Assembly: GCA_964619555.1 (NCBI GenBank)
Contig: CAZUDV010000006.1
Span: 178,394 to 242,393, forward strand
Direction of reading: 5' to 3'
From: an uncultured Bacteroidales bacterium
Lineage (GTDB): Bacteria > Bacteroidota > Bacteroidia > Bacteroidales > JAGOPY01
DNA length: 64,000 bases
Below the pieces are notes generated by a model. The model was not told the origin of the DNA, did not search any database, and saw only the letters and a program-made list of their open reading frames with translations. Of this stretch, positions 4,012-17,927 are shown one piece after another; position 1 is the first letter of the stretch, and every line of letters starts with the position of its first letter. The position numbers and the translations under genes are program-made.

Positions 4012-6957
4012 ATGACAGAAGAGTTAAAACCATACAGGTTAAAGAAAGCCGCTACCGAGCTTAATGTAGGAATTTCCACAATCGTGGAATTTCTGCATAA
4101 GAAAGGTATTGTGATCGAGGAAAATCCGAATACCAAGATCACGCAGGATATCTTTGCCATGCTGGTTAAGGAATATCAGTCCGATAAAGCCGCAAAGGAT
4201 GAAGCGATGAAGATCGGGCTTTCTTTTGTCAAACACGAGTCGATCGTACTGGATGAAAAAGGGGCAAAAGCACGGCAGGCTGAACCGGAAACTGAACCAG
4301 AAGAACTCTTTATCAAGAGTTCAACGGTTACTTATGACGATTCCGTTATTCCAAAAGAAAAGAAATCGACCAGGAAAACAGAGGAAGAAAAACCTGAAGA
4401 AGTAAAACCTGTCCCGGCTCCCTCCAAACCAAAACCTGCTGAGCCTGAAAAAGACCGGGAGGTCGTCCCGAAAGCGAAAACGGAACCGAAACCCGCCGAA
4501 GAGCCGAAGATCCCTGCCGAAAAAGAACCGGTTGCGGCAGAAGAAGATGAAAAGACAGAGTCTTCCCTGAAAGTGCTGGGAAAAATAGACCTCGACAGCC
4601 TGAACCAGAAAACCCGCCCTGCCAAGAAATCCAGGGAGGAAAAGAAGGCGGAAGCAGCGAAAAAGGCAACCGAGAAACAAGAAAAGACCCTGGAGAAAGA
4701 AAAACCTGCTGAAAAAGCTGAGAAAATGACCGAACCACCGGCAGAGATCAAAGAACCGGTCGTTGAACAGCCCAAACCCCAGGAACAAAAACCTGTAAGG
4801 GATGCGAATTTCATTCCGACCCGCTTTGAGAAACTCGACGGACCAAAGATCCTGGGTAAAATTGAAGTCCCTGAACCTGCCAAGAGCGTGAAGCCGGTAG
4901 CATCGTCAACCGATGAGAAACTTCAGCTGAAGAAGAAAAAACGGAAGCGTATCCGCCAGGAAAAACTCGAAGACCAGCCGGAACAAAAGGAAGCCAAGGA
5001 ACGCCAGAAGCCGAGGTCCAGGAAAAAGGAACATTACAAGCCTGAACCTTCGGAAGAGGAAATCCAGAAACAGATCAAGGAAACCCTTGCGAGACTTGCT
5101 CCCACGGGTAAATCCAAAACTTCCAAATACCGCAGGCAAAAGCGCGAAAGCATCCGCGAAGAGATAGAAATTGAACGCCAGAAGGCCGAAGAGGAAAAGA
5201 AAATACTCAAGGTCACTGAATTCGTTACGGTCAATGAAATGGCCAATATGATGAATGTCCCGGTGATCGAGATCATTTCTACCTTTATGCAGTTGGGGAT
5301 GTTCGTGAATATAAACCAGCGACTGAATGCGGAAAGCCTAGCCCTGGTGGCGGAGGAATTTGGCTATAAAGTCGAATTCGTCAGCGTAGAAGTGCAGGAA
5401 GCCATTGAACAGGCACAGGAAGAAACCGATCCGGAGGATAAGCTTTCTGAACGGCCGCCCATTGTGACCGTTATGGGGCACGTTGACCACGGGAAGACCA
5501 AACTTCTGGACTTTATCAGGAACACCAATGTGGTAGCCGGGGAAGCCGGTGGTATTACACAGCATATTGGCGCTTACGAAGTCCAGCTTGAGAACCGAAA
5601 AAAGATAACCTTCCTCGATACGCCGGGCCATGAAGCTTTTACGGCCATGCGTGCCAGGGGGGCCATGGTGACAGACGTTGCCATTATCGTTATTGCAGCC
5701 GATGATGATGTCATGCCGCAAACAGTGGAAGCTATCAATCACGCCCAGGCTGCCAACGTCCCTATCGTTTTTGCCATCAATAAAGTCGATAAACCTACGG
5801 CCAATCCTGAAAAGATCAAGGAACAACTGGCCAAGATGAATATATTGGTGGAAGACTGGGGCGGAAAATATCAATCCCAGGAAATATCTGCCAAGCAGGG
5901 ACTCAACGTGGGCCTGCTGCTGGATAAGGTATTGCTGGAAGCTGAAATGCTGGAGCTGAAAGCCAATCCGGGCAGACTGGCCTATGGGGCTGTACTGGAA
6001 TCCTCCCTTGACAAGGGCCGTGGATATGTGGCCAAGGTGCTGGTACAGAACGGCAGTCTGCGCATCGGTGACATAGTACTTGCCGGAGCTCATTTCGGCA
6101 AGGTCAAAGCCATGTATAACGAGCGAAACCTCAGGATCGACGTTGCCGGGCCCAGCACGCCCGTGCTCCTGCTGGGGCTCGATGGTGCACCCCAGGCCGG
6201 GGATAAATTCAACGTCATGAGGGATGAGCGTGAGGCCAAGGCCATCGCCAACAAAAGGATCCAGTTGCAGCGCGAACAGGGGATCCGCTCCCAGAAACAT
6301 ATCACTCTCGATGAAATTGGCCGTCGAATCGCAATCGGTGATTTCAAGGAATTAAACCTTATTGTGAAAGGCGATGTCGATGGTTCGGTAGAGGCTCTGT
6401 CAGATTCTCTCCTGAAGCAGTCCACCAATGAGGTGCAGGTTAACGTCATCCACAAATCTGTTGGCCAGGTAACTGAATCAGACGTTTTGCTGGCCTCTGC
6501 ATCCAATGCCATTATAGTCGGTTTCCAGGTAAGGCCATCGCTCGGCGCACGTAAACTGGCCGAAAAAGAACAGATTGAAATCAGGACTTACTCCATCATT
6601 TACCAGGCAATCGAAGAGATCAAGGCTGCTATAGAAGGCATGCTTTCTCCCGATATTGAAGAACGTATTACCTCCAATATTGAAATCAGGGAGGTCTTTA
6701 AAATTTCCAAAGTCGGTACTGTTGCCGGATGTTATGTTCTGGACGGTAAAATCGGCAGAAATACCCGGATCAGGGTCATCCGCGACGGGATTGTGGTTTA
6801 TACCGGTAAACTGGGGTCACTCAAACGGTTTAAGGAAGATGTGAAAGAGGTAGCAGCCGGATTTGAATGTGGGCTGAACATCGAGAATTTCAACGATATC
6901 AAGGTTGGTGATATCATCGAAGGATTCGAGGAAGTAGAAGTAAAGCGGAAGCTTTAG
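4012..6957 (+). CDS. infB: translation initiation factor IF-2
   Basis: 981 aa. GTPase motifs [13 protein letters not shown] and NKVD. Long K/E/P-rich N-terminal region typical of IF-2. Confidence 0.95.
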
Positions 6958-11116: not shown

Positions 11117-11227
11117 CAACAAAGAAAAATTCAAAATCTTTTACTAAATAAACATAAAGGAATATTTTTTGCTGCTGACCCTTCCGGAAGCGGTGGAATT
11201 TCTTAGGCGGCCGAAGTGGATTTTATC

Positions 11228-11235
11228 TAAATTTG
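11228..11235 (+). promoter_or_regulatory. -7 box TAAATTTG for the T9SS cargo gene
   Basis: Exact TAnnTTTG match, 23 nt upstream of ATG 11259. It lies inside the longer TTG-initiated ORF, which argues for the shorter start. Confidence 0.45.
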
Positions 11236-11258
11236 AATTTTTAATTCCGGGCAGGCGA

Positions 11259-13871
11259 ATGATTAAGCGCATAATAGTTTGGATGATATTTATGCTTGTA
11301 GCGGTGGCCTCTCATGCCACCCATCAGCGTGCTGCCGAAATTACCTACAGGCACGTCACAGGTCTGACCTATGAGGTTAAAATCATCACTTATACGTATA
11401 CCCCAAGCCCGGCCGACCGTCCGGAACTGGAAATATTCTGGGGCGACGGGACGAGTTCCATGCTGAAAAGAACCCTAAAACAAAACCTTCCCGATAACAT
11501 CAGCCTGAATGAATATGAATATCAGCCGGAGAACGGGGCGACCACGAACAGGCACACTTACAGTTCACCCGGGACTTATATCCTTTATATGGAGGATCCA
11601 AACCGGAATTATGGAGTGGTCAACATTCCGAACTCAGTGAATGTGCCAATGTATGTGGAAACAGCCCTTGTCATTAATCCTTTCCTGGGTTACAATAACT
11701 CTCCCACCCTGCTGAATCCGCCAGTTGATGTGGGATGCGTCGGACAACTATTCCTGCATAACCCGGGCGCCTTCGATATAGACGGCGACAGTTTATCCTA
11801 CAAACTGGTGATTTGTAAAACAGCCGGTGGAATTGAAATCCCGGGATTCTCCTATCCGCAGGCCAGCAATGAATTTACAATCAACAGCGTGACAGGAGAC
11901 GTGATCTGGGACAGCCCGGTCATCCAGGGCGAATACAATATTGCTTTCATAATCGAAGAATGGAGGAACAATGTCAGGATCGGATATGTCACGAGGGATA
12001 TGCAAATTGAGATTCTGGCCTGCGATAACCAGCCGCCATTGATCCTTTCGGTTAGCGATACCTGCGTCACGGCCGGCGAAAAGATCACCTTCGATATCAC
12101 AGCGGTTGATCCCGATGGGGACAGGGTGTCCCTTTCCGCGACCGGTGGACCATTCGAACTGGCTGATTCCCCGGCAGAAATCGATCCCGACCCGGCAGCA
12201 GGCAATGATACGGTTGTGACAACCTTCACCTGGAACACCAATTGCTCCCATGTGCAGAAACAACCCTACCAGGTTTTTTTCAAGGCGACTGACGACGGTT
12301 ATCCGATTAACCTGGTCAGCTATAAAACCATTTCCATTACCGTGATAAGCCCTGCTCCTGAAAACCTCACGGCCGATGCTATTGGAAGCACTATTCACAT
12401 AAACTGGAACAAAGCGGTTTGCCAGAAGGCGGCTGGTTATAATATTTACCGCAGGATAGGGTACTTCGGATTTATTCCCGGTCCCTGTGAAACGGGAGTG
12501 CCAGCTTATACCGGTTACAGGTTGATCCACCGGACAGGGTCCCTATCCGATACGGTTTACGTGGACGATGATAACGGACTGGGGCTTATCCACGGGAATG
12601 ATTACTGCTATATAGTAACGGCTGTTTTTCAGGATGGAGCCGAAAGTTATGCTTCCCTGGAAGCTTGCGCCACGCTGAAACGTGATATCCCTGTCATTAC
12701 CAACGTGAGCAACGACAGTTCGGACCTTTTGGCCGGCAGGGCATTTGTAGCCTGGTCCAAACCGACAGAACTGGATACGATCCAGATTCCCGGTCCTTAC
12801 CAATATGTTCTTTACCGTTCTGACGATGGTTTTGGAGCTAACCTGCAAGAAATTGCCACCCTTCCTGGATTGAACGATACGGTTTTCACCGATAACGGGG
12901 TGGACCTGAATACCTCCGGGATACCTTACAGCTATCGCGTCGGACTTGAAAGCCTGACTTTCGGTTTCATCGGCAACAGTCAGATCGCCTCTTCCATATA
13001 TATCGACTTATATGAAACGGATGAAGAGATACAGCTTTCATTTGCCCCGAATGTACCCTGGCTGAATGAATATTACGTTATTTACCGGCGGGATGAAGGG
13101 GAATCGCAATTTGATTCGATTGGTGCCAGCAATGGGCCTTTTTACCGGGACACCTTACTCACGAATTTTAAGACTTATTGCTATTACGTGAAAAGCGTGG
13201 GGAGTTACACAGCTTCAGGCTTTGTCGATCCGATCATCAATTTTTCACAGGTGGTCTGTGGACAGCCGTACGATAATGAACCGCCATGCCCTCCTGAGTT
13301 GACCGTCACAACAAATTGCGACGAGGCCTTAAATACCCTGCTTTGGACCAATCCCAATCTGACCTGTGCTGATGATGTGGTAAAATATTACATCTATTAT
13401 TCTCCCCTGCAGGGTTCGGATTTTGTCCTGATCGACTCAACCAGCCCGGCTGAGAACACCAATTACAACCATTTCAACGAAGGGAGCATCACCGGCTGTT
13501 ATGCAGTCACGGCAATAGATTCAGTCGGTAACCAGAGTTTATTCAGCAATGTGGTTTGCATCGACAATGACACCTGTTCGGTTTATTCCCTGCCAAATGT
13601 TTTCACCCCCAATTTCGACGGGTATATTGACACTTTTTATCCCTTTCCTTACACTTCTGTCGAAAAAGTGAAAATGACCATTTTCAACCGTTGGGGAAAT
13701 ATTGTTTATGAAACGGAAGATCCGGATATCAACTGGGATGGGAAGGATTACAAGAATGGCACAGACTGTGCGGAAGGGACCTATTTCTATGTCTGTTACG
13801 TTTACGAGCTCACCCTGCAGGGTACCCGACAGCGGGAACTCAGGGGATCGATCACCCTCCTGCGGAATTAA
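11259..13871 (+). CDS. large secreted protein with a T9SS type B C-terminal sorting domain (gliding-motility-associated CTD)
   Basis: Start moved from 11169 (TTG) to ATG 11259, which gives the signal peptide MIKRIIVWMIFMLVAVASHA. The C-terminus (NVFTPNFDGYIDTFYP ... IFNRWGNIVYE ... WDGKDYKNG ... EGTYFYV) matches the CHU_C/type B CTD pattern. Confidence 0.8.
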   Translation: MIKRIIVWMIFMLVAVASHATHQRAAEITYRHVTGLTYEVKIITYTYTPSPADRPELEIFWGDGTSSMLKRTLKQNLPDNISLNEYEYQPENGATTNRHTYSSPGTYILYMEDPNRNYGVVNIPNSVNVPMYVETALVINPFLGYNNSPTLLNPPVDVGCVGQLFLHNPGAFDIDGDSLSYKLVICKTAGGIEIPGFSYPQASNEFTINSVTGDVIWDSPVIQGEYNIAFIIEEWRNNVRIGYVTRDMQIEILACDNQPPLILSVSDTCVTAGEKITFDITAVDPDGDRVSLSATGGPFELADSPAEIDPDPAAGNDTVVTTFTWNTNCSHVQKQPYQVFFKATDDGYPINLVSYKTISITVISPAPENLTADAIGSTIHINWNKAVCQKAAGYNIYRRIGYFGFIPGPCETGVPAYTGYRLIHRTGSLSDTVYVDDDNGLGLIHGNDYCYIVTAVFQDGAESYASLEACATLKRDIPVITNVSNDSSDLLAGRAFVAWSKPTELDTIQIPGPYQYVLYRSDDGFGANLQEIATLPGLNDTVFTDNGVDLNTSGIPYSYRVGLESLTFGFIGNSQIASSIYIDLYETDEEIQLSFAPNVPWLNEYYVIYRRDEGESQFDSIGASNGPFYRDTLLTNFKTYCYYVKSVGSYTASGFVDPIINFSQVVCGQPYDNEPPCPPELTVTTNCDEALNTLLWTNPNLTCADDVVKYYIYYSPLQGSDFVLIDSTSPAENTNYNHFNEGSITGCYAVTAIDSVGNQSLFSNVVCIDNDTCSVYSLPNVFTPNFDGYIDTFYPFPYTSVEKVKMTIFNRWGNIVYETEDPDINWDGKDYKNGTDCAEGTYFYVCYVYELTLQGTRQRELRGSITLLRN

Positions 13872-13896
13872 CAGCGAAGTACTTTCCATGAAAAAT

Positions 13897-13940
13897 GCCG
13901 CTGATTCACGGATCTTTCCATATATCACCGAATCAGCGGC
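13897..13940. terminator. inverted repeat between convergent genes (possible bidirectional terminator)
   Basis: GCCGCTGATTC ... GAATCAGCGGC, an 11-12 bp perfect stem. The loop is large (22 nt), so confidence is modest. Confidence 0.35.
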
Positions 13941-13990
13941 ACAGGTACAAAAAATCTATTCAATCGTGCCTTTTAATCACGAAGTCGTTC

Positions 13991-14989
13991 CTAAAACTTC
14001 TGGAACAACCGGATCAGGTCAACCACGCGGTTGCTGTATCCCCACTCGTTATCATACCAGCTCAGGACTTTAACGATACGGTTTCCAACAACCTTGGTAA
14101 ATTCCGGGTCGAAGATAGAAGAGTAGGGATTTCCGACGATGTCGGAGGAAACCCACTTGAAATCGGAATACAGGAGGACATTCTTCATCCGTTCGGTCTG
14201 GGAAGCGGCCTTCATGGCTGCATTCACCTCTTCGGCGGTTACGTCCTTTCCAACTTCCACGATCAGGTCAACGACTGAACCATCCGGTACGGGCACGCGG
14301 GATGCCATCCCGTCGAGCCGGCCTTTCAGTTCGGGGATTACTTTCCCGACCGCTTTGGCAGCCCCGGTGGTGGTAAGGATGATATTTTCAGCAGCGGCGC
14401 GTCCCCGTCTCCAGTCCTTATGGGGAACGTCGGCCAGGCGCTGGTCGTTGGTGTAGGCATGCGTGGTGGTCATAAGTCCGTCGATGATCCCGAATGCATC
14501 GTTGAGCACTTTCGCTACAGGAGCCAGGCAATTGGTGGTGCAACTGGCATTGGACACGATCCTGTGCTCCGCTTTGAGGGTATCTTCATTGACGCCTATG
14601 ACAATCGTCGCATCGATCTCATCCTTGGATGGGACGGTAAGGATCACACGCCTGGCACCAGCCTGCAGGTGAGCCTCCAGCTGGGAGCGTTTCCGGAATA
14701 CGCCGGTCGCTTCGACCACTACATCGATATCCAGCTCCTTCCATGGAAGCTGGGCCATATCGCTTTGTGAAAGCATCAGTACCCTTTCCTCCGGGGTGAC
14801 CAGGTAATCGCCTTCTATCCTGGCATCTCTATAATAGGTTGACATCACTGTATCATACTTCAGCAGGTATGTCAGCACATCATTTTCATACAGGTCGTTG
14901 ATGGCAACGACATCGATCTTTGGGTCGGCATCGAGGATTCTGAAAACAGAACGACCGATCCTGCCAAATCCGTTAATTGCTACTCTCAT
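13991..14989 (-). CDS. gap: type I glyceraldehyde-3-phosphate dehydrogenase
   Basis: 332 aa. Contains NGFGRIGR, the active site SNASCTTNCLAP, THAYT, TTTGAAKAV and WYDNEWGYS. Confidence 0.95.
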   Translation of the reverse strand: MRVAINGFGRIGRSVFRILDADPKIDVVAINDLYENDVLTYLLKYDTVMSTYYRDARIEGDYLVTPEERVLMLSQSDMAQLPWKELDIDVVVEATGVFRKRSQLEAHLQAGARRVILTVPSKDEIDATIVIGVNEDTLKAEHRIVSNASCTTNCLAPVAKVLNDAFGIIDGLMTTTHAYTNDQRLADVPHKDWRRGRAAAENIILTTTGAAKAVGKVIPELKGRLDGMASRVPVPDGSVVDLIVEVGKDVTAEEVNAAMKAASQTERMKNVLLYSDFKWVSSDIVGNPYSSIFDPEFTKVVGNRIVKVLSWYDNEWGYSNRVVDLIRLFQKF

Positions 14990-16014
14990 TGGACACCTCC
15001 TTTCTGGGTATTTTCCTGTAAATTGTGATAAGTCCTGACCACGTCAAGGATGCGGCAGGCCTGGGCTAGTGCTGTATGATACCATACCAGCGTTTTCATC
15101 ATCTTGCCCTGGGATTTCATGGTTGCCAGTTTATCGAAGATCACAGCATGGCGGTCATTGATCACGTCGCTGGATACGATCGGGTCTTCGGCCACCCGGA
15201 TCAGTTTCGGGAGCTTTCCTGCTGCTTCGTACATCAGTTCATTGACCTGCTCGACTGTTACATCCTTCGTTCTGAAAACTGTCGTCAAGTCAAGCAGCGA
15301 ACCATTCGGGATCGGCACGTTTAATGCAGTACCGTCGATCCTTCCGGCTAATTCCGGAAGGATAGTGGGAATCCATCTGGGAGTAGGGGTTTCATTCGGT
15401 ATGATGTTCTCCGCTGCCGAACGTGACCGGCGGAAATCAATCCCTGCTTTATCGCGCAGCGGCTGATCGGAAGTATAGGAATGGACAGTAGTAAGCATGG
15501 CATAGTCCACACCGAACTTTTCATTGAAGAATTTCAGCATCAGGGCGGTGGCATTTGTAGTAGCTGAGCCAGCAGACACGATCTTATCCTTCAGGTCAAT
15601 CGTATGTTCATTGACTCCCATCACCACGATGCGGTCGATTTCGTCCTCCGGCAGCGTGGAGAGCACCACGTGAGGGGCGCCTGCTTTGAGGTGTTTTTCC
15701 AGATCCCTCCGGGTTTTGAAAATACCCGTCGCATCGACAACCACGTCAACATCAAAGATATCCCATGGGATATCGCCTGGCTTTCCGCCGGTCACAATGC
15801 GGGCGCGCCCTGCTGCCGAATTGATGAAATTGCCATCTTCAAGGGTAACCTTGACACGGCCTTTCACTTCAGCTTCCAGCAGATAGGCCAGAATATCGGG
15901 CTTGCCATAATCGCTGATGGCCACTACTTCGAACATATCATCTTCCATACACAGCCGGTAGATGTGCCTTCCGATCTCTCCGAAGCCCATGATTCCTAAT
16001 CTTACCTTGCTCAT
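14986..16014 (-). CDS. GAPDH-family paralog lacking the catalytic cysteine (probable pseudoenzyme or divergent function)
   Basis: 342 aa, colinear with gap. It has SAGSATTNA in place of SNASCTTNC and GFGEIGR in place of GFGRIGR. The phosphate-binding loops are divergent. Its stop overlaps the gap start as ATGA. Confidence 0.8.
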   Translation of the reverse strand: MSKVRLGIMGFGEIGRHIYRLCMEDDMFEVVAISDYGKPDILAYLLEAEVKGRVKVTLEDGNFINSAAGRARIVTGGKPGDIPWDIFDVDVVVDATGIFKTRRDLEKHLKAGAPHVVLSTLPEDEIDRIVVMGVNEHTIDLKDKIVSAGSATTNATALMLKFFNEKFGVDYAMLTTVHSYTSDQPLRDKAGIDFRRSRSAAENIIPNETPTPRWIPTILPELAGRIDGTALNVPIPNGSLLDLTTVFRTKDVTVEQVNELMYEAAGKLPKLIRVAEDPIVSSDVINDRHAVIFDKLATMKSQGKMMKTLVWYHTALAQACRILDVVRTYHNLQENTQKGGVQ

Positions 16015-16071: not shown

Positions 16072-16079
16072 CAAAGATA
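16072..16079 (-). promoter_or_regulatory. -7 box (TATCTTTG on the minus strand) for the gap-like/gap operon
   Basis: Exact TAnnTTTG match, 57 nt upstream of ATG 16014. Confidence 0.4.
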
Positions 16080-16139: not shown

Positions 16140-17927
16140 ATGAAAAACATCCGCAACTTCTGCATCATCGCCCATATTGATCACGGTAAATCCACGCTGG
16201 CCGACCGATTGCTGGAACAAACCGGCACGGTGACCGGCAAGGATATGCAGGACCAGGTGCTCGATGATATGGATCTGGAGCGCGAAAAAGGCATTACGAT
16301 TAAAAGCCATGCCATCCAGATGGACTATAAGCACGATGGGGTGAATTACAAGCTGAACCTCATCGATACCCCGGGCCATGTTGATTTTTCATACGAAGTG
16401 TCCAGGTCCATCGCTTCCTGCGAAGGTGCCCTGCTGATTGTCGACGCCACCCAGGGTGTGCAGGCACAAACCATCTCCAATTTATACATGGCCATCGACC
16501 ATGATCTGGAGATCATCCCGGTGATGAACAAGATGGACAGTGAAAATGCCATGCCGGACGAAGTGCGGGAACAAATCGTAGACCTCCTGGGATGCAAGCC
16601 GGAAGAGATCATCGAAGCCAGTGGCCGGACAGGTTATGGCGTGGAACGGATTCTCGATGCTATCATTCACCGCATCCCGGCCCCGGCGGGGGAAGATGAC
16701 GAGCCTCTGCAAGCCCTTATCTTCGATTCCGTATTCAATCCTTTCCGGGGAATTATCGCTTATTTCAGGATATTTCACGGCGTCATCCGAAAAGGGGACC
16801 ATGTGAAGTTCATTTCCACAGGACGCGAATACGACGCCGATGAGATCGGAGTACTGAAGCTCAAAATGGAGGAACGGCAGGAAATGCATGCAGGCGATGT
16901 GGGTTATATCATCAGCGGGATCAAAACCTCCAGGGAAGTCCGCGTCGGGGATACCATCACGCACGTCGACAGACCAGCCATAGCAGCGGTGTCCGGGTTC
17001 CAGGAGGTGAAACCAATGGTCTTCGCCGGGATCTACCCGGTGGATGCCGACGATTACGAGGAACTCCGTGCATCGCTCGAAAAACTCCAGCTCAACGATG
17101 CTTCCCTCACATTTGAACCGGAATCCTCCGCAGCATTAGGTTTCGGCTTCCGTGGCGGGTTCCTCGGGTTGCTGCACATGGAGATCGTGCAGGAACGCCT
17201 CGACAGGGAGTTCGATATGGACGTCATCACCACGGTGCCCAACGTATCGTACCAGGTCTTCACCACAAAGGATGAGATCATCGAGGTGCACAACCCATCC
17301 GGGATGCCCGACATCAAGTACATCGACCATATCCGCGAACCCTATATCATTGCCCAGATCATTTCCAAGGTGGAATACATCGGCTCCATCATGAAACTCT
17401 GTATCGACAAGCGCGGGACGCTTAAAAGCCAGGTTTACCTGACCAGCAACCGGGTGGAAGTGACCTTCGAAATGCCGCTCGGGGAAATCGTCTTCGATTT
17501 CTATGACAAGCTCAAGAGCATCTCCAAGGGCTATGCTTCTTTTGATTATCACCATGCCGACTACAGGCCTGCCAGGCTGGTCAAACTGGACATACTCATC
17601 AATAAAGAGCCGGTCGACGCACTGTCATCTCTGATCCACGCCGATCATTCCTATGACCTGGGCCGGAAAATGTGCGAAAAGCTGAAGGAACTCATCCCTC
17701 GCCAACAATTTGAAGTGGCTATCCAGGCAGCCATCGGCGCCAAGATCATTGCCCGCGAAACCATCAAGGCGGTCCGGAAAGACGTGACGGCCAAATGTTA
17801 TGGCGGTGACATCACCCGTAAGCGCAAGCTCCTCGAAAAGCAGAAAAAAGGTAAAAAGCGCATGCGACAGGTAGGGAACGTAGAGATCCCGCAGAAGGCT
17901 TTCCTCGCCGTGCTTAAGCTGGATTAG
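16140..17927 (+). CDS. lepA: translation elongation factor 4 (LepA)
   Basis: 595 aa. N-terminus [22 protein letters not shown], plus DTPGH and NKMD. The C-terminal LepA-specific region ends in [15 protein letters not shown]. Confidence 0.95.

Follow-up and report, generated by a model that had tools for sequence, protein, structure and literature searches.

Glyceraldehyde-3-phosphate dehydrogenase (GAPDH) belongs to the best-studied enzymes, and its bacterial form is regarded as a homotetramer in which all subunits are identical and active. Chloroplasts contain an A2B2 GAPDH built from GapA and GapB, in which GapB is active and regulates the enzyme via a Cys-containing, CP12-like C-terminal extension. 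The pseudoenzyme field is dominated by eukaryotic examples. In trypanosomatids, dead paralogs of AdoMetDC, deoxyhypusine synthase (DHS), and PRMT1, known as prozymes, join the active enzyme in hetero-oligomers, which in the case of DHS and PRMT1 are heterotetramers (PMC5201418, PMC3663545, bioRxiv 10.1101/776112). Here, we describe a bacterial gene pair in which a canonical GAPDH gene (gap) is preceded by a gene for a GAPDH-fold protein without the catalytic cysteine, given the working name GapX (gene gapX). The pair lies in a 64,000-nucleotide (nt) stretch of DNA from an uncultured Bacteroidales bacterium (contig CAZUDV010000006.1, positions 178,394 to 242,393), hereafter the window. GapX is no local oddity but a member of a large, old multi-phylum family, the basal members of which have the Cys, and it is probably a non-catalytic subunit of a mixed GAPDH tetramer formed with the co-translated Gap. 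The two genes and their junction are as follows:

14986..16014, minus strand: gapX, an open reading frame (ORF) of 342 amino acids (aa) with a GAPDH fold, predicted non-catalytic subunit
13991..14989, minus strand: gap, an ORF of 332 aa, canonical type I GAPDH and catalytic partner
14986..14989, minus strand: ATGA stop/start overlap of gapX and gap (the plus strand reads tcat)

Like the prozymes, which together with the chloroplast enzyme are its nearest functional analogs, GapX is a dead paralog that has lost catalytic residues, evolves under purifying selection, is conserved across taxa, and is proposed to act by oligomerizing with its active paralog. The two systems differ in that the active partner of a prozyme, by itself, works weakly or is impaired and their association has been demonstrated, whereas Gap looks fully competent and its complex with GapX is a proposal; furthermore, gapX and gap are bacterial and operon-coupled. 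With the chloroplast A2B2 enzyme, GapX would share the principle of two GAPDH paralogs in one tetramer, one of them specialized for regulation. However, GapB is active and GapX is dead, and the C-terminal tail of GapX (…LQENTQKGGVQ) is only ∼10 residues long, without any Cys and hence without a Cys pair, its last codons encoding a Shine-Dalgarno (SD) sequence.

The initial annotation, made from the sequence, had described the 342-aa upstream protein as GAPDH-like, with a stop codon overlapping the start of the canonical gap gene. Both descriptions stand: an alignment of GapX with the adjacent GAPDH covers 333 residues at 38% identity (E = 1e-77), both proteins match the Pfam domains Gp_dh_N and Gp_dh_C (for GapX, E = 2e-18 and 1e-42, respectively), and bases 14986 to 14989 read ATGA. 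In Gap, SCTTNC, His176, Arg231, TGAAKAV, and WYDNEWGYS are all in place. GapX resembles type I GAPDH (GapA; TIGR01534, EC 1.2.1.12) in its two-domain fold and length and in the presence of His176, Thr179, Arg194/195/197, the S-loop, GxGxxG, and Asp32 but differs from it in the loss of Cys149, Cys153, and Arg231, the replacement of the 206-213 loop, the degradation of the Asn313/Glu314/Tyr317 motif, and a profile score below the cutoff. The segments concerned are the following:

15550..15567, minus strand: SATTNA in place of SCTTNC, residues 150-155, with Ala151 corresponding to Cys149 and Ala155 to Cys153
15967..15987, minus strand: GFGEIGR dinucleotide-binding loop, residues 10-16, with Arg10 replaced by Glu
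15373..15396, minus strand: NETPTPRW in place of the TGAAKAV anion (Pi) loop, residues 207-214, a family-specific conserved motif (N206, W213)
15319..15321, minus strand: Asn232 in place of Arg231 of the Ps phosphate site, a change that defines the GapX clade as a whole
15058..15084, minus strand: WYHTALAQA in place of WYDNEWGYS, residues 311-319, nicotinamide-pocket residues Asn313/Glu314/Tyr317 being lost in this lineage
15400..15483, minus strand: His176 and the S-loop (HSYTSDQPLRDKAGIDFRRSRSAAENII), the best-conserved segment common to GapX and its partner

The SATTNA replacement (with Ala at both the nucleophile and the second Cys), GFGEIGR in place of GFGRIGR, and the NETPTPRW and WYHTALAQA replacements had been listed in the initial annotation, as had the retained context of the catalytic-base His, and all were read as described, with VHSYT at residues 177 to 181; the change from Arg231 to Asn232 is a further substitution, absent from that list. 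The codon of Ala151, at 15562-15564, is GCT on the minus strand (agc on the plus strand). What Cys149, His176, and the two phosphate sites (Ps and Pi) do in GAPDH has been reviewed (PMC12041015). Because Cys149 is absent, GapX cannot form the thiohemiacetal or the thioester; with Cys153, Arg231, the 206-213 anion loop and, in this lineage, Asn313/Glu314/Tyr317 also missing, it is incapable of the GAPDH reaction, and the earlier view that it is not a conventional GAPDH is upheld.

Across 70 aligned family members, position 149 is Ala in 49, Ser in 20, and Gly in 1, and it is occupied by Ala, Ser, Gly, Val, Asn, or Pro in different GapX lineages. The catalytic base His176 (His178 in GapX) is invariant in the 70 proteins, and Asn is found at position 231 in nearly all GapX members. 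The remodeled 206-213 loop of the window protein has Glu at 207, and the phosphate-site residues Thr179, Ser148, and Arg195 are still present. In the NAD site, GxGxxG and Asp32 are present, along with Glu for Arg10, Thr for Asn313, and Gln for Tyr317, substituted positions that are relaxed family-wide. The third Gly of the GFGEIGR loop is replaced by Pro, Asn, or Ser in other Bacteroidota, and a WYDNGWG version of the 313 motif is still found in Fidelibacterota and in basal GapX lineages.

No known functional family claims GapX. In an NCBIfam profile search, no model reached its cutoff; on TIGR01534, the type I GAPDH model with a cutoff of 367.2 bits, Gap scored 431.1 and GapX 275.8, compared with 258-272 for other Bacteroidales GapX members and 321-330 for Marinimicrobia representatives (P0126 and P0351). 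The alignment to the GAPDH, Epd, and Asd families that had been suggested for the paralog left it below every cutoff. Epd (TIGR01532) and the ArsJ-associated GAPDH (NF033735) are, like GapX, GAPDH-derived paralogs that match the same profiles, but both keep the catalytic Cys and are enzymes, whereas GapX has no such Cys. An assignment to Epd (210.7 bits against a cutoff of 530.55) was therefore rejected, as was one to the ArsJ-associated GAPDH (209.9 bits against 450), the neighbors of gapX being lepA and gap and not arsJ; neither arsJ nor pdx genes were found in the gapX neighborhoods examined. Type II GAPDH and Asd were likewise rejected, with scores far under the cutoffs. A search of the PDB returned no solved structure of the GapX family, the best matches being ordinary GAPDHs (E ∼1e-66), and a full-text search of the literature on GAPDH yielded no description of it. 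An AlphaFold2 (AF2) model of GapX has the GAPDH fold (predicted local distance difference test [pLDDT] score of 74.7, from a shallow alignment of 15 sequences), and a Foldseek search with this model returned GAPDHs only, at template modeling scores of ∼0.8. Judged by its sequence, GapX is a derived sister clade of type I GAPDH and not a functional member of it.

Public names for GapX proteins are inconsistent, ranging from "hypothetical protein" and "GAPDH NAD-binding domain-containing protein" to, wrongly, "type I GAPDH." Among members named by NCBI (P0278, P0351, P0395, P0429, P0452, and P0495), several are labeled type I glyceraldehyde-3-phosphate dehydrogenase, including Marinimicrobia proteins with Ser149 and Asn231, and others bear one of the remaining names.

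A catalytic residue could also be missing because the Cys codons were misread in sequencing or because the duplicate is decaying as a pseudogene. The closest homologs of GapX were sought in a collection of 5.8 billion sequences, and the best 120 matches, at 61-94% identity, all lack Cys149: 108 are of the SATTNA type, 7 of the SSTTNA type, and 2 carry SATTNS, with 3 unmatched by the pattern. At least 120 homologs in this identity range are intact. A change from GCT to a Cys codon (TGY) takes two base changes; this, together with the equally Cys-less 120 nearest homologs, excludes the sequencing error that the initial annotation had considered. Among nine close Bacteroidales relatives, the nonsynonymous divergence (dN) is 0.074 for GapX and 0.068 for its partner, and these equal values indicate that GapX is as constrained as the essential enzyme encoded next to it; the ratios to synonymous divergence (dN/dS) are ∼0.045 and 0.043, approximate figures given that dS is saturated (∼1.6), which leaves the near-equal dN unaffected. 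All close relatives carry GapX, as do at least 78 of the 80 species-level loci listed, so that the absence from relatives envisaged in the initial annotation is not what is found, and several phyla carry it with the gene order kept. Beyond the missing catalytic residues themselves, the case for decay comes down to one Bacteroidales metagenome-assembled genome (MAG), L054, in which a single frameshift breaks GapX (5001-6021) and the downstream gap is intact. This frameshift is most likely an assembly indel rather than gene decay; we take the isolate name, MFD03804, as an unverified hint of a long-read assembly. An artifact or a decaying duplicate is accordingly given next to no credence.

To delineate the distribution of the pair, one genome per species was surveyed, giving at least 80 loci (those listed). 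A Cys-less GapX is encoded in 78 of the 80, and in 74 of these 78 a canonical SCTTNC gap follows directly downstream on the same strand; the remainder stop at a contig edge. The carriers listed are uncultured Bacteroidales, Lentimicrobiaceae, Fidelibacterota/Marinimicrobia, Gammaproteobacteria (Pseudomonadales-type MAGs), and one Fibrobacteraceae MAG. The same gapX-gap layout is found in a marine Marinimicrobia lineage, where position 149 is Ser in 119 of the 120 proteins listed and Thr in 1 and Asn231 is present in all 120, and gapX genes of Acidobacteriota, Thermoanaerobaculia, and Desulfobacterales also lie directly upstream of a canonical gap. Conservation of the gap-like/gap pair, which the initial annotation had raised as a question, thus extends over at least six phylum-level lineages (Bacteroidota, Fidelibacterota/Marinimicrobia, Gammaproteobacteria, Fibrobacterota, Acidobacteriota, and Desulfobacterales). 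Beyond the pair itself, no neighbor is conserved across phyla in the loci examined. In Desulfobacterales-type contigs (L089 to L091), the pair is embedded in the order eno-gpmI-[gapX-gap]-pgk-fba. In the window, lepA (elongation factor 4; 16140-17927, plus strand) is divergent upstream of gapX, an arrangement repeated in ∼40 (39-41) Bacteroidales loci; this synteny is confined to Bacteroidales and is not kept in other phyla. Pairwise distances of GapX and its partner are correlated (r = 0.957).

Several individual loci deserve separate mention. Two separate gapX-gap modules (L063 and L066) occur on one gammaproteobacterial chromosome (OZ244830.1, "Ca. Azophilus sp."), and in a Marinimicrobia contig (L083), gap is followed by a pyruvate kinase gene. 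Long matches considered as natural GapX-Gap fusions, such as P0390 and P0121, were rejected. P0390 (564 aa) is a chimera in which the C-terminal half of a GapX is followed by scrambled sequence in the wrong frame and then by an entire canonical GAPDH; it is not a natural fusion but an artifact of the overlapping pair, caused by a frameshift or by read-through. P0121 (2089 aa), from the search of cluster representatives described below, is an unusual giant multidomain protein unrelated to GapX, with the order GAPDH-GAPDH-PGK-GAPDH-GAPDH and a hydrophobic, signal-like N terminus; the Cys is kept in all four GAPDH modules, of which the second and fourth have SAASCTTNA[YF].

The history of the family was traced with a profile search over 1.84 billion cluster representatives, of which the top 150 were inspected; 27 of these lack both Cys149 and Arg231. 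In neighbor-joining (NJ) trees, which provide the phylogenetic placement suggested earlier for the paralog, GapX falls in one clade apart from the GAPDHs with Cys and Arg231: all module paralogs split from every such sequence in 200/200 bootstraps. In a larger data set, 48 of the 49 non-Arg231 sequences form one clade, with the exact split in 139/200 bootstraps and a canonical-free split holding at least 90% of the non-Arg231 sequences in 190/200. These trees indicate a single origin of the GapX family. A group from Acidobacteriota, Thermoanaerobaculia, and Desulfobacterales keeps Cys149, Cys153, and His176 (SNGSCTAHCA) and already has Asn231, Gly314, and the remodeled 206-213 loop, and members nested within it have Val, Asn, or Gly in place of the Cys. 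Lineages that retain the Cys are basal, and by Fitch parsimony the Cys disappeared at least four times within the GapX clade; because it was lost so often, the function of GapX would be independent of Cys149. Scores on TIGR01534 descend in steps, from 431 for the partner through 383 and 367 for basal GapX, 332 for the Val type, and 321-330 for Marinimicrobia to 258-276 for Bacteroidales, and therefore suggest that the phosphate sites were lost first and that the nucleophile then repeatedly became dispensable. Basal GapX and its partner have nearly the same S-loop (…NDQRLADVPH..LRRSRAAAENII). The origin of GapX would thus lie in a tandem duplication of a partner-type GAPDH, to which these observations point.

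The same comparisons bear on the possibility that GapX has a remodeled pocket and is itself enzymatically active or binds a ligand, for example, as a Cys-independent oxidoreductase or hydrolase that uses His176 to act on a glycolysis-related metabolite. The genes would then be co-expressed on account of linked reactions, and no complex would be formed. Consistent with such a role, His176, Ser148, Thr151, Thr179, and Arg194/195/197 show little or no variation among the 70 members, the family-specific residues N206, W213, Asn231, A153, and G147 replace canonical ones, and basal lineages keep GxGxxG, Asp32, and Asn313 beside Cys149, Cys153, and His176. Furthermore, other parts of the wider GapDH superfamily contain clades that are active without the Cys (PMC12041015). 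However, these clades are distant and use coenzyme A or phosphopantetheine thioesters, and GapX has no domains of that kind. Position 149 varies by lineage among Ala, Ser, Gly, Val, Asn, and Pro, both anion sites are gone, and the NAD contacts are relaxed in Bacteroidota (Pro, Asn, or Ser for G12; R10E; N313T; Y317 variable). An enzymatic or ligand-binding role outside a complex is thus considered rather unlikely.

To locate the constraint on GapX, conservation was compared over 329 columns in 70 pairs of GapX and partner from the same genome. GapX is the more variable protein, with a mean column entropy of 1.20 compared to 0.77 and with 70 invariant columns compared to 144. Positions that are invariant in the partner and variable in GapX include Ile11, Gly12, Asn31, Leu33, Phe98, Thr118, Val119, Ala210, Asn313, Glu314, and Tyr317; those relaxed in GapX are mostly cofactor and active-site residues. 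Conversely, Asn206, Trp213, Asn231, Ala153, and Gly147 are fixed specifically in GapX. In 45 columns, both proteins are conserved and carry the same residue; 14 of these columns lie within the 27 residues of the His176/S-loop segment (Fisher p = 6e-7). We take the S-loop to be the core of the GAPDH tetramer, with residues 187-190 lining the neighboring cofactor pocket. In the AF2 monomer model, the pLDDT drops below 50 at GapX residues 177-209, 230-237, and 279-287 (about 15388-15486, 15304-15327, and 15154-15180 of the window), the first of which is the S-loop, the most conserved segment of the family. All three presumably lie at GAPDH subunit contacts, and their low pLDDT would be weakly consistent with an order that depends on quaternary structure.

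The interface itself is asymmetric. In the GAPDH of B. stearothermophilus, two dimers are reportedly joined by the contacts Asp186-Ser48 (R axis) and Glu276-Tyr46 (Q axis), and the mutants Y46G/S48G and D186G/E276G are said to be dimers (Roitel, Sergienko and Branlant, Biochemistry 1999). At these positions, GapX, its partner, and stand-alone GAPDH representatives compare as follows:

Tyr46: GapX, 0/70 (and 0/120 listed from the marine lineage); partner, 99% Tyr; stand-alone GAPDH, 66% Tyr
Thr/Ser48: GapX, 47/70; partner, 100%; stand-alone GAPDH, 96%
Asp186: GapX, 100%; partner, 100%; stand-alone GAPDH, 100%
Acidic residue at 276: GapX, 100%; partner, 74%; stand-alone GAPDH, 70%

GapX thus appears to retain the halves of the bonds that would dock onto Tyr46 and Thr48 of the partner and to have lost its own Tyr46, residue 276 of the partner being correspondingly free of constraint, the pattern that a hetero-contact would give. 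This asymmetry predicts that GapX alone would form no stable tetramer and that the complex would be GapX2-Gap2.

The organization of the transcription unit is consistent with coordinated production of the two proteins. Both genes are found in 72 loci, of which 52 have ATGA at the junction and 16 more a 1-nt overlap of the TAATG/TGATG type. SD-led initiation is scarce in Bacteroidota. An SD combined with a stop/start overlap is characteristic of subunits produced in a fixed ratio. The SD of gap in the window is an 8-nt AAGGAGGT match, and gap is the sole gene with a strong SD among the 42 long ORFs of the window examined. AAGGAG precedes the gap ATG in 50/51 Bacteroidota loci (L001-L048, L060, L072, L077, and L079), and in these 50/51 loci the motif is conserved at synonymous positions of the gapX end. 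In a phylum where most starts do not involve an SD, that of gap would therefore be a rare one, SD-led and of the reinitiation type. The signals of the predicted operon are these:

14996..15003, minus strand: Shine-Dalgarno sequence AAAGGAGG, in the last gapX codons, 6 nt before the gap ATG
16072..16079, minus strand: candidate Bacteroidetes-type -7 box TATCTTTG (TAnnTTTG), 58 nt upstream of the gapX ATG
13890..13942, minus strand: terminator-like hairpin (GCCGCUGAUUC...GAAUCAGCGGC, then AUUUUUC), ∼50 nt after the gap stop

The candidate promoter box at 16072-16079 follows TAnnTTTG, the Bacteroidetes -7 consensus. The hairpin has a minimum free energy of -35.5 kcal/mol (z = -2.7 against shuffles). 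With it, the candidate -7 box appears to bracket a two-gene operon. Scans for sigma-70 promoters and simple terminators gave no signal above shuffles, and an Rfam scan of the window returned one unrelated tRNA only. The hairpin also sits between gap and a convergent ORF of 900 aa (11169-13871) and may act as a bidirectional terminator.

These features also help to assess whether GapX is instead a free-standing protein with a moonlighting, regulatory, or scaffold function outside the GAPDH tetramer, binding, for example, another glycolytic enzyme, RNA, or a regulator. Moonlighting is well known for GAPDH-fold proteins, GapX is under strong purifying selection without its catalytic residues, and in Desulfobacterales the pair is embedded among glycolytic genes, all of which would fit such a function. 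Nevertheless, the only consistent associate of GapX across the six phylum-level lineages is gap itself, the stop/start overlap with its SD is of the kind typical of fixed-ratio subunits, the best-conserved shared segment is the S-loop at the core of the GAPDH tetramer, and the Tyr46/acidic-276 asymmetry matches a GapX-Gap contact. A free-standing GapX is accordingly judged improbable.

The initial annotation had offered three functions for the paralog: a non-catalytic partner in a hetero-oligomer, a regulator or binding protein, and an enzyme with different chemistry. Of these, the sequence data favor the first, on the grounds of obligatory gene adjacency and translational coupling, joint inheritance, the conserved S-loop, and the asymmetric interface. 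Under the mixed-tetramer model, gapX and gap would be a two-gene operon transcribed into one mRNA, with gap translated by termination-reinitiation at the ATGA overlap, aided by the embedded SD. Sharing an mRNA and coupled in translation, both chains should therefore be produced together and in similar amounts. GapX would then co-assemble with the catalytic GAPDH as a structural or regulatory subunit, in the most specific version as GapX2-Gap2, in which the R- and Q-axis contacts are hetero-contacts, and its conserved S-loop would form part of the cofactor pocket in the catalytic subunits. The dead active site of GapX may be silent or may have been repurposed for ligand sensing. Plausible effects include an altered cooperativity or affinity for NAD, via the changed S-loop residues 187-190, and allosteric sensing through the remodeled dead pocket.

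Several observations weigh against this model. The partner Gap is fully canonical and should make active homotetramers alone. GapX strictly conserves Ser148, Thr151, His176, Thr179, and Arg194/195/197, plus its own N206, W213, and Asn231, so that the pocket could still be under selection for ligand binding or another chemistry. Basal lineages retain Cys149 in 111 of the 120 proteins listed, which suggests that this residue still matters there. Correlated distances are also expected for any two genes that are inherited together, NJ support for the exact clade limits is moderate (139/200 for GapX and 55-154/200 for the partner clade), the dN/dS ratios are affected by the saturation noted above, and the interface argument uses contacts described in the literature, not coordinates.

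A stronger version of the mixed-tetramer model, which we put forward tentatively, is that in a wide range of bacteria the glycolytic GAPDH is not a homotetramer but obligately combines two catalytic subunits with two dead GapX subunits in a heterotetramer, where the degenerate site of GapX and its altered S-loop would adjust how the catalytic pair binds its cofactor, its cooperativity, or its allosteric control. If so, no pseudoenzyme subunit of a core glycolytic enzyme would have been described from bacteria before GapX, and the arrangement would be found, among others, in abundant marine Marinimicrobia, uncultured Bacteroidales, Gammaproteobacteria associated with sponges and the ocean, Acidobacteriota, and Desulfobacterales. 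What makes GapX surprising is that it concerns GAPDH, is widespread, and went unnoticed; the weakness of the case is that both the complex and its effect are inferred. No NCBIfam model sets the GapX family apart, and genome-scale metabolic reconstructions may count two GAPDHs where one is catalytic. With members ranging from those that keep the Cys to those in which it was lost, at least four times over, the family is a natural series for studying the change from enzyme to pseudoenzyme. If the proposed role is correct, the pseudoenzyme field would gain a clear bacterial, operon-encoded case, and models of flux, redox sensitivity, and cofactor use at the GAPDH step would have to be changed for several environmentally important, mostly uncultured lineages.

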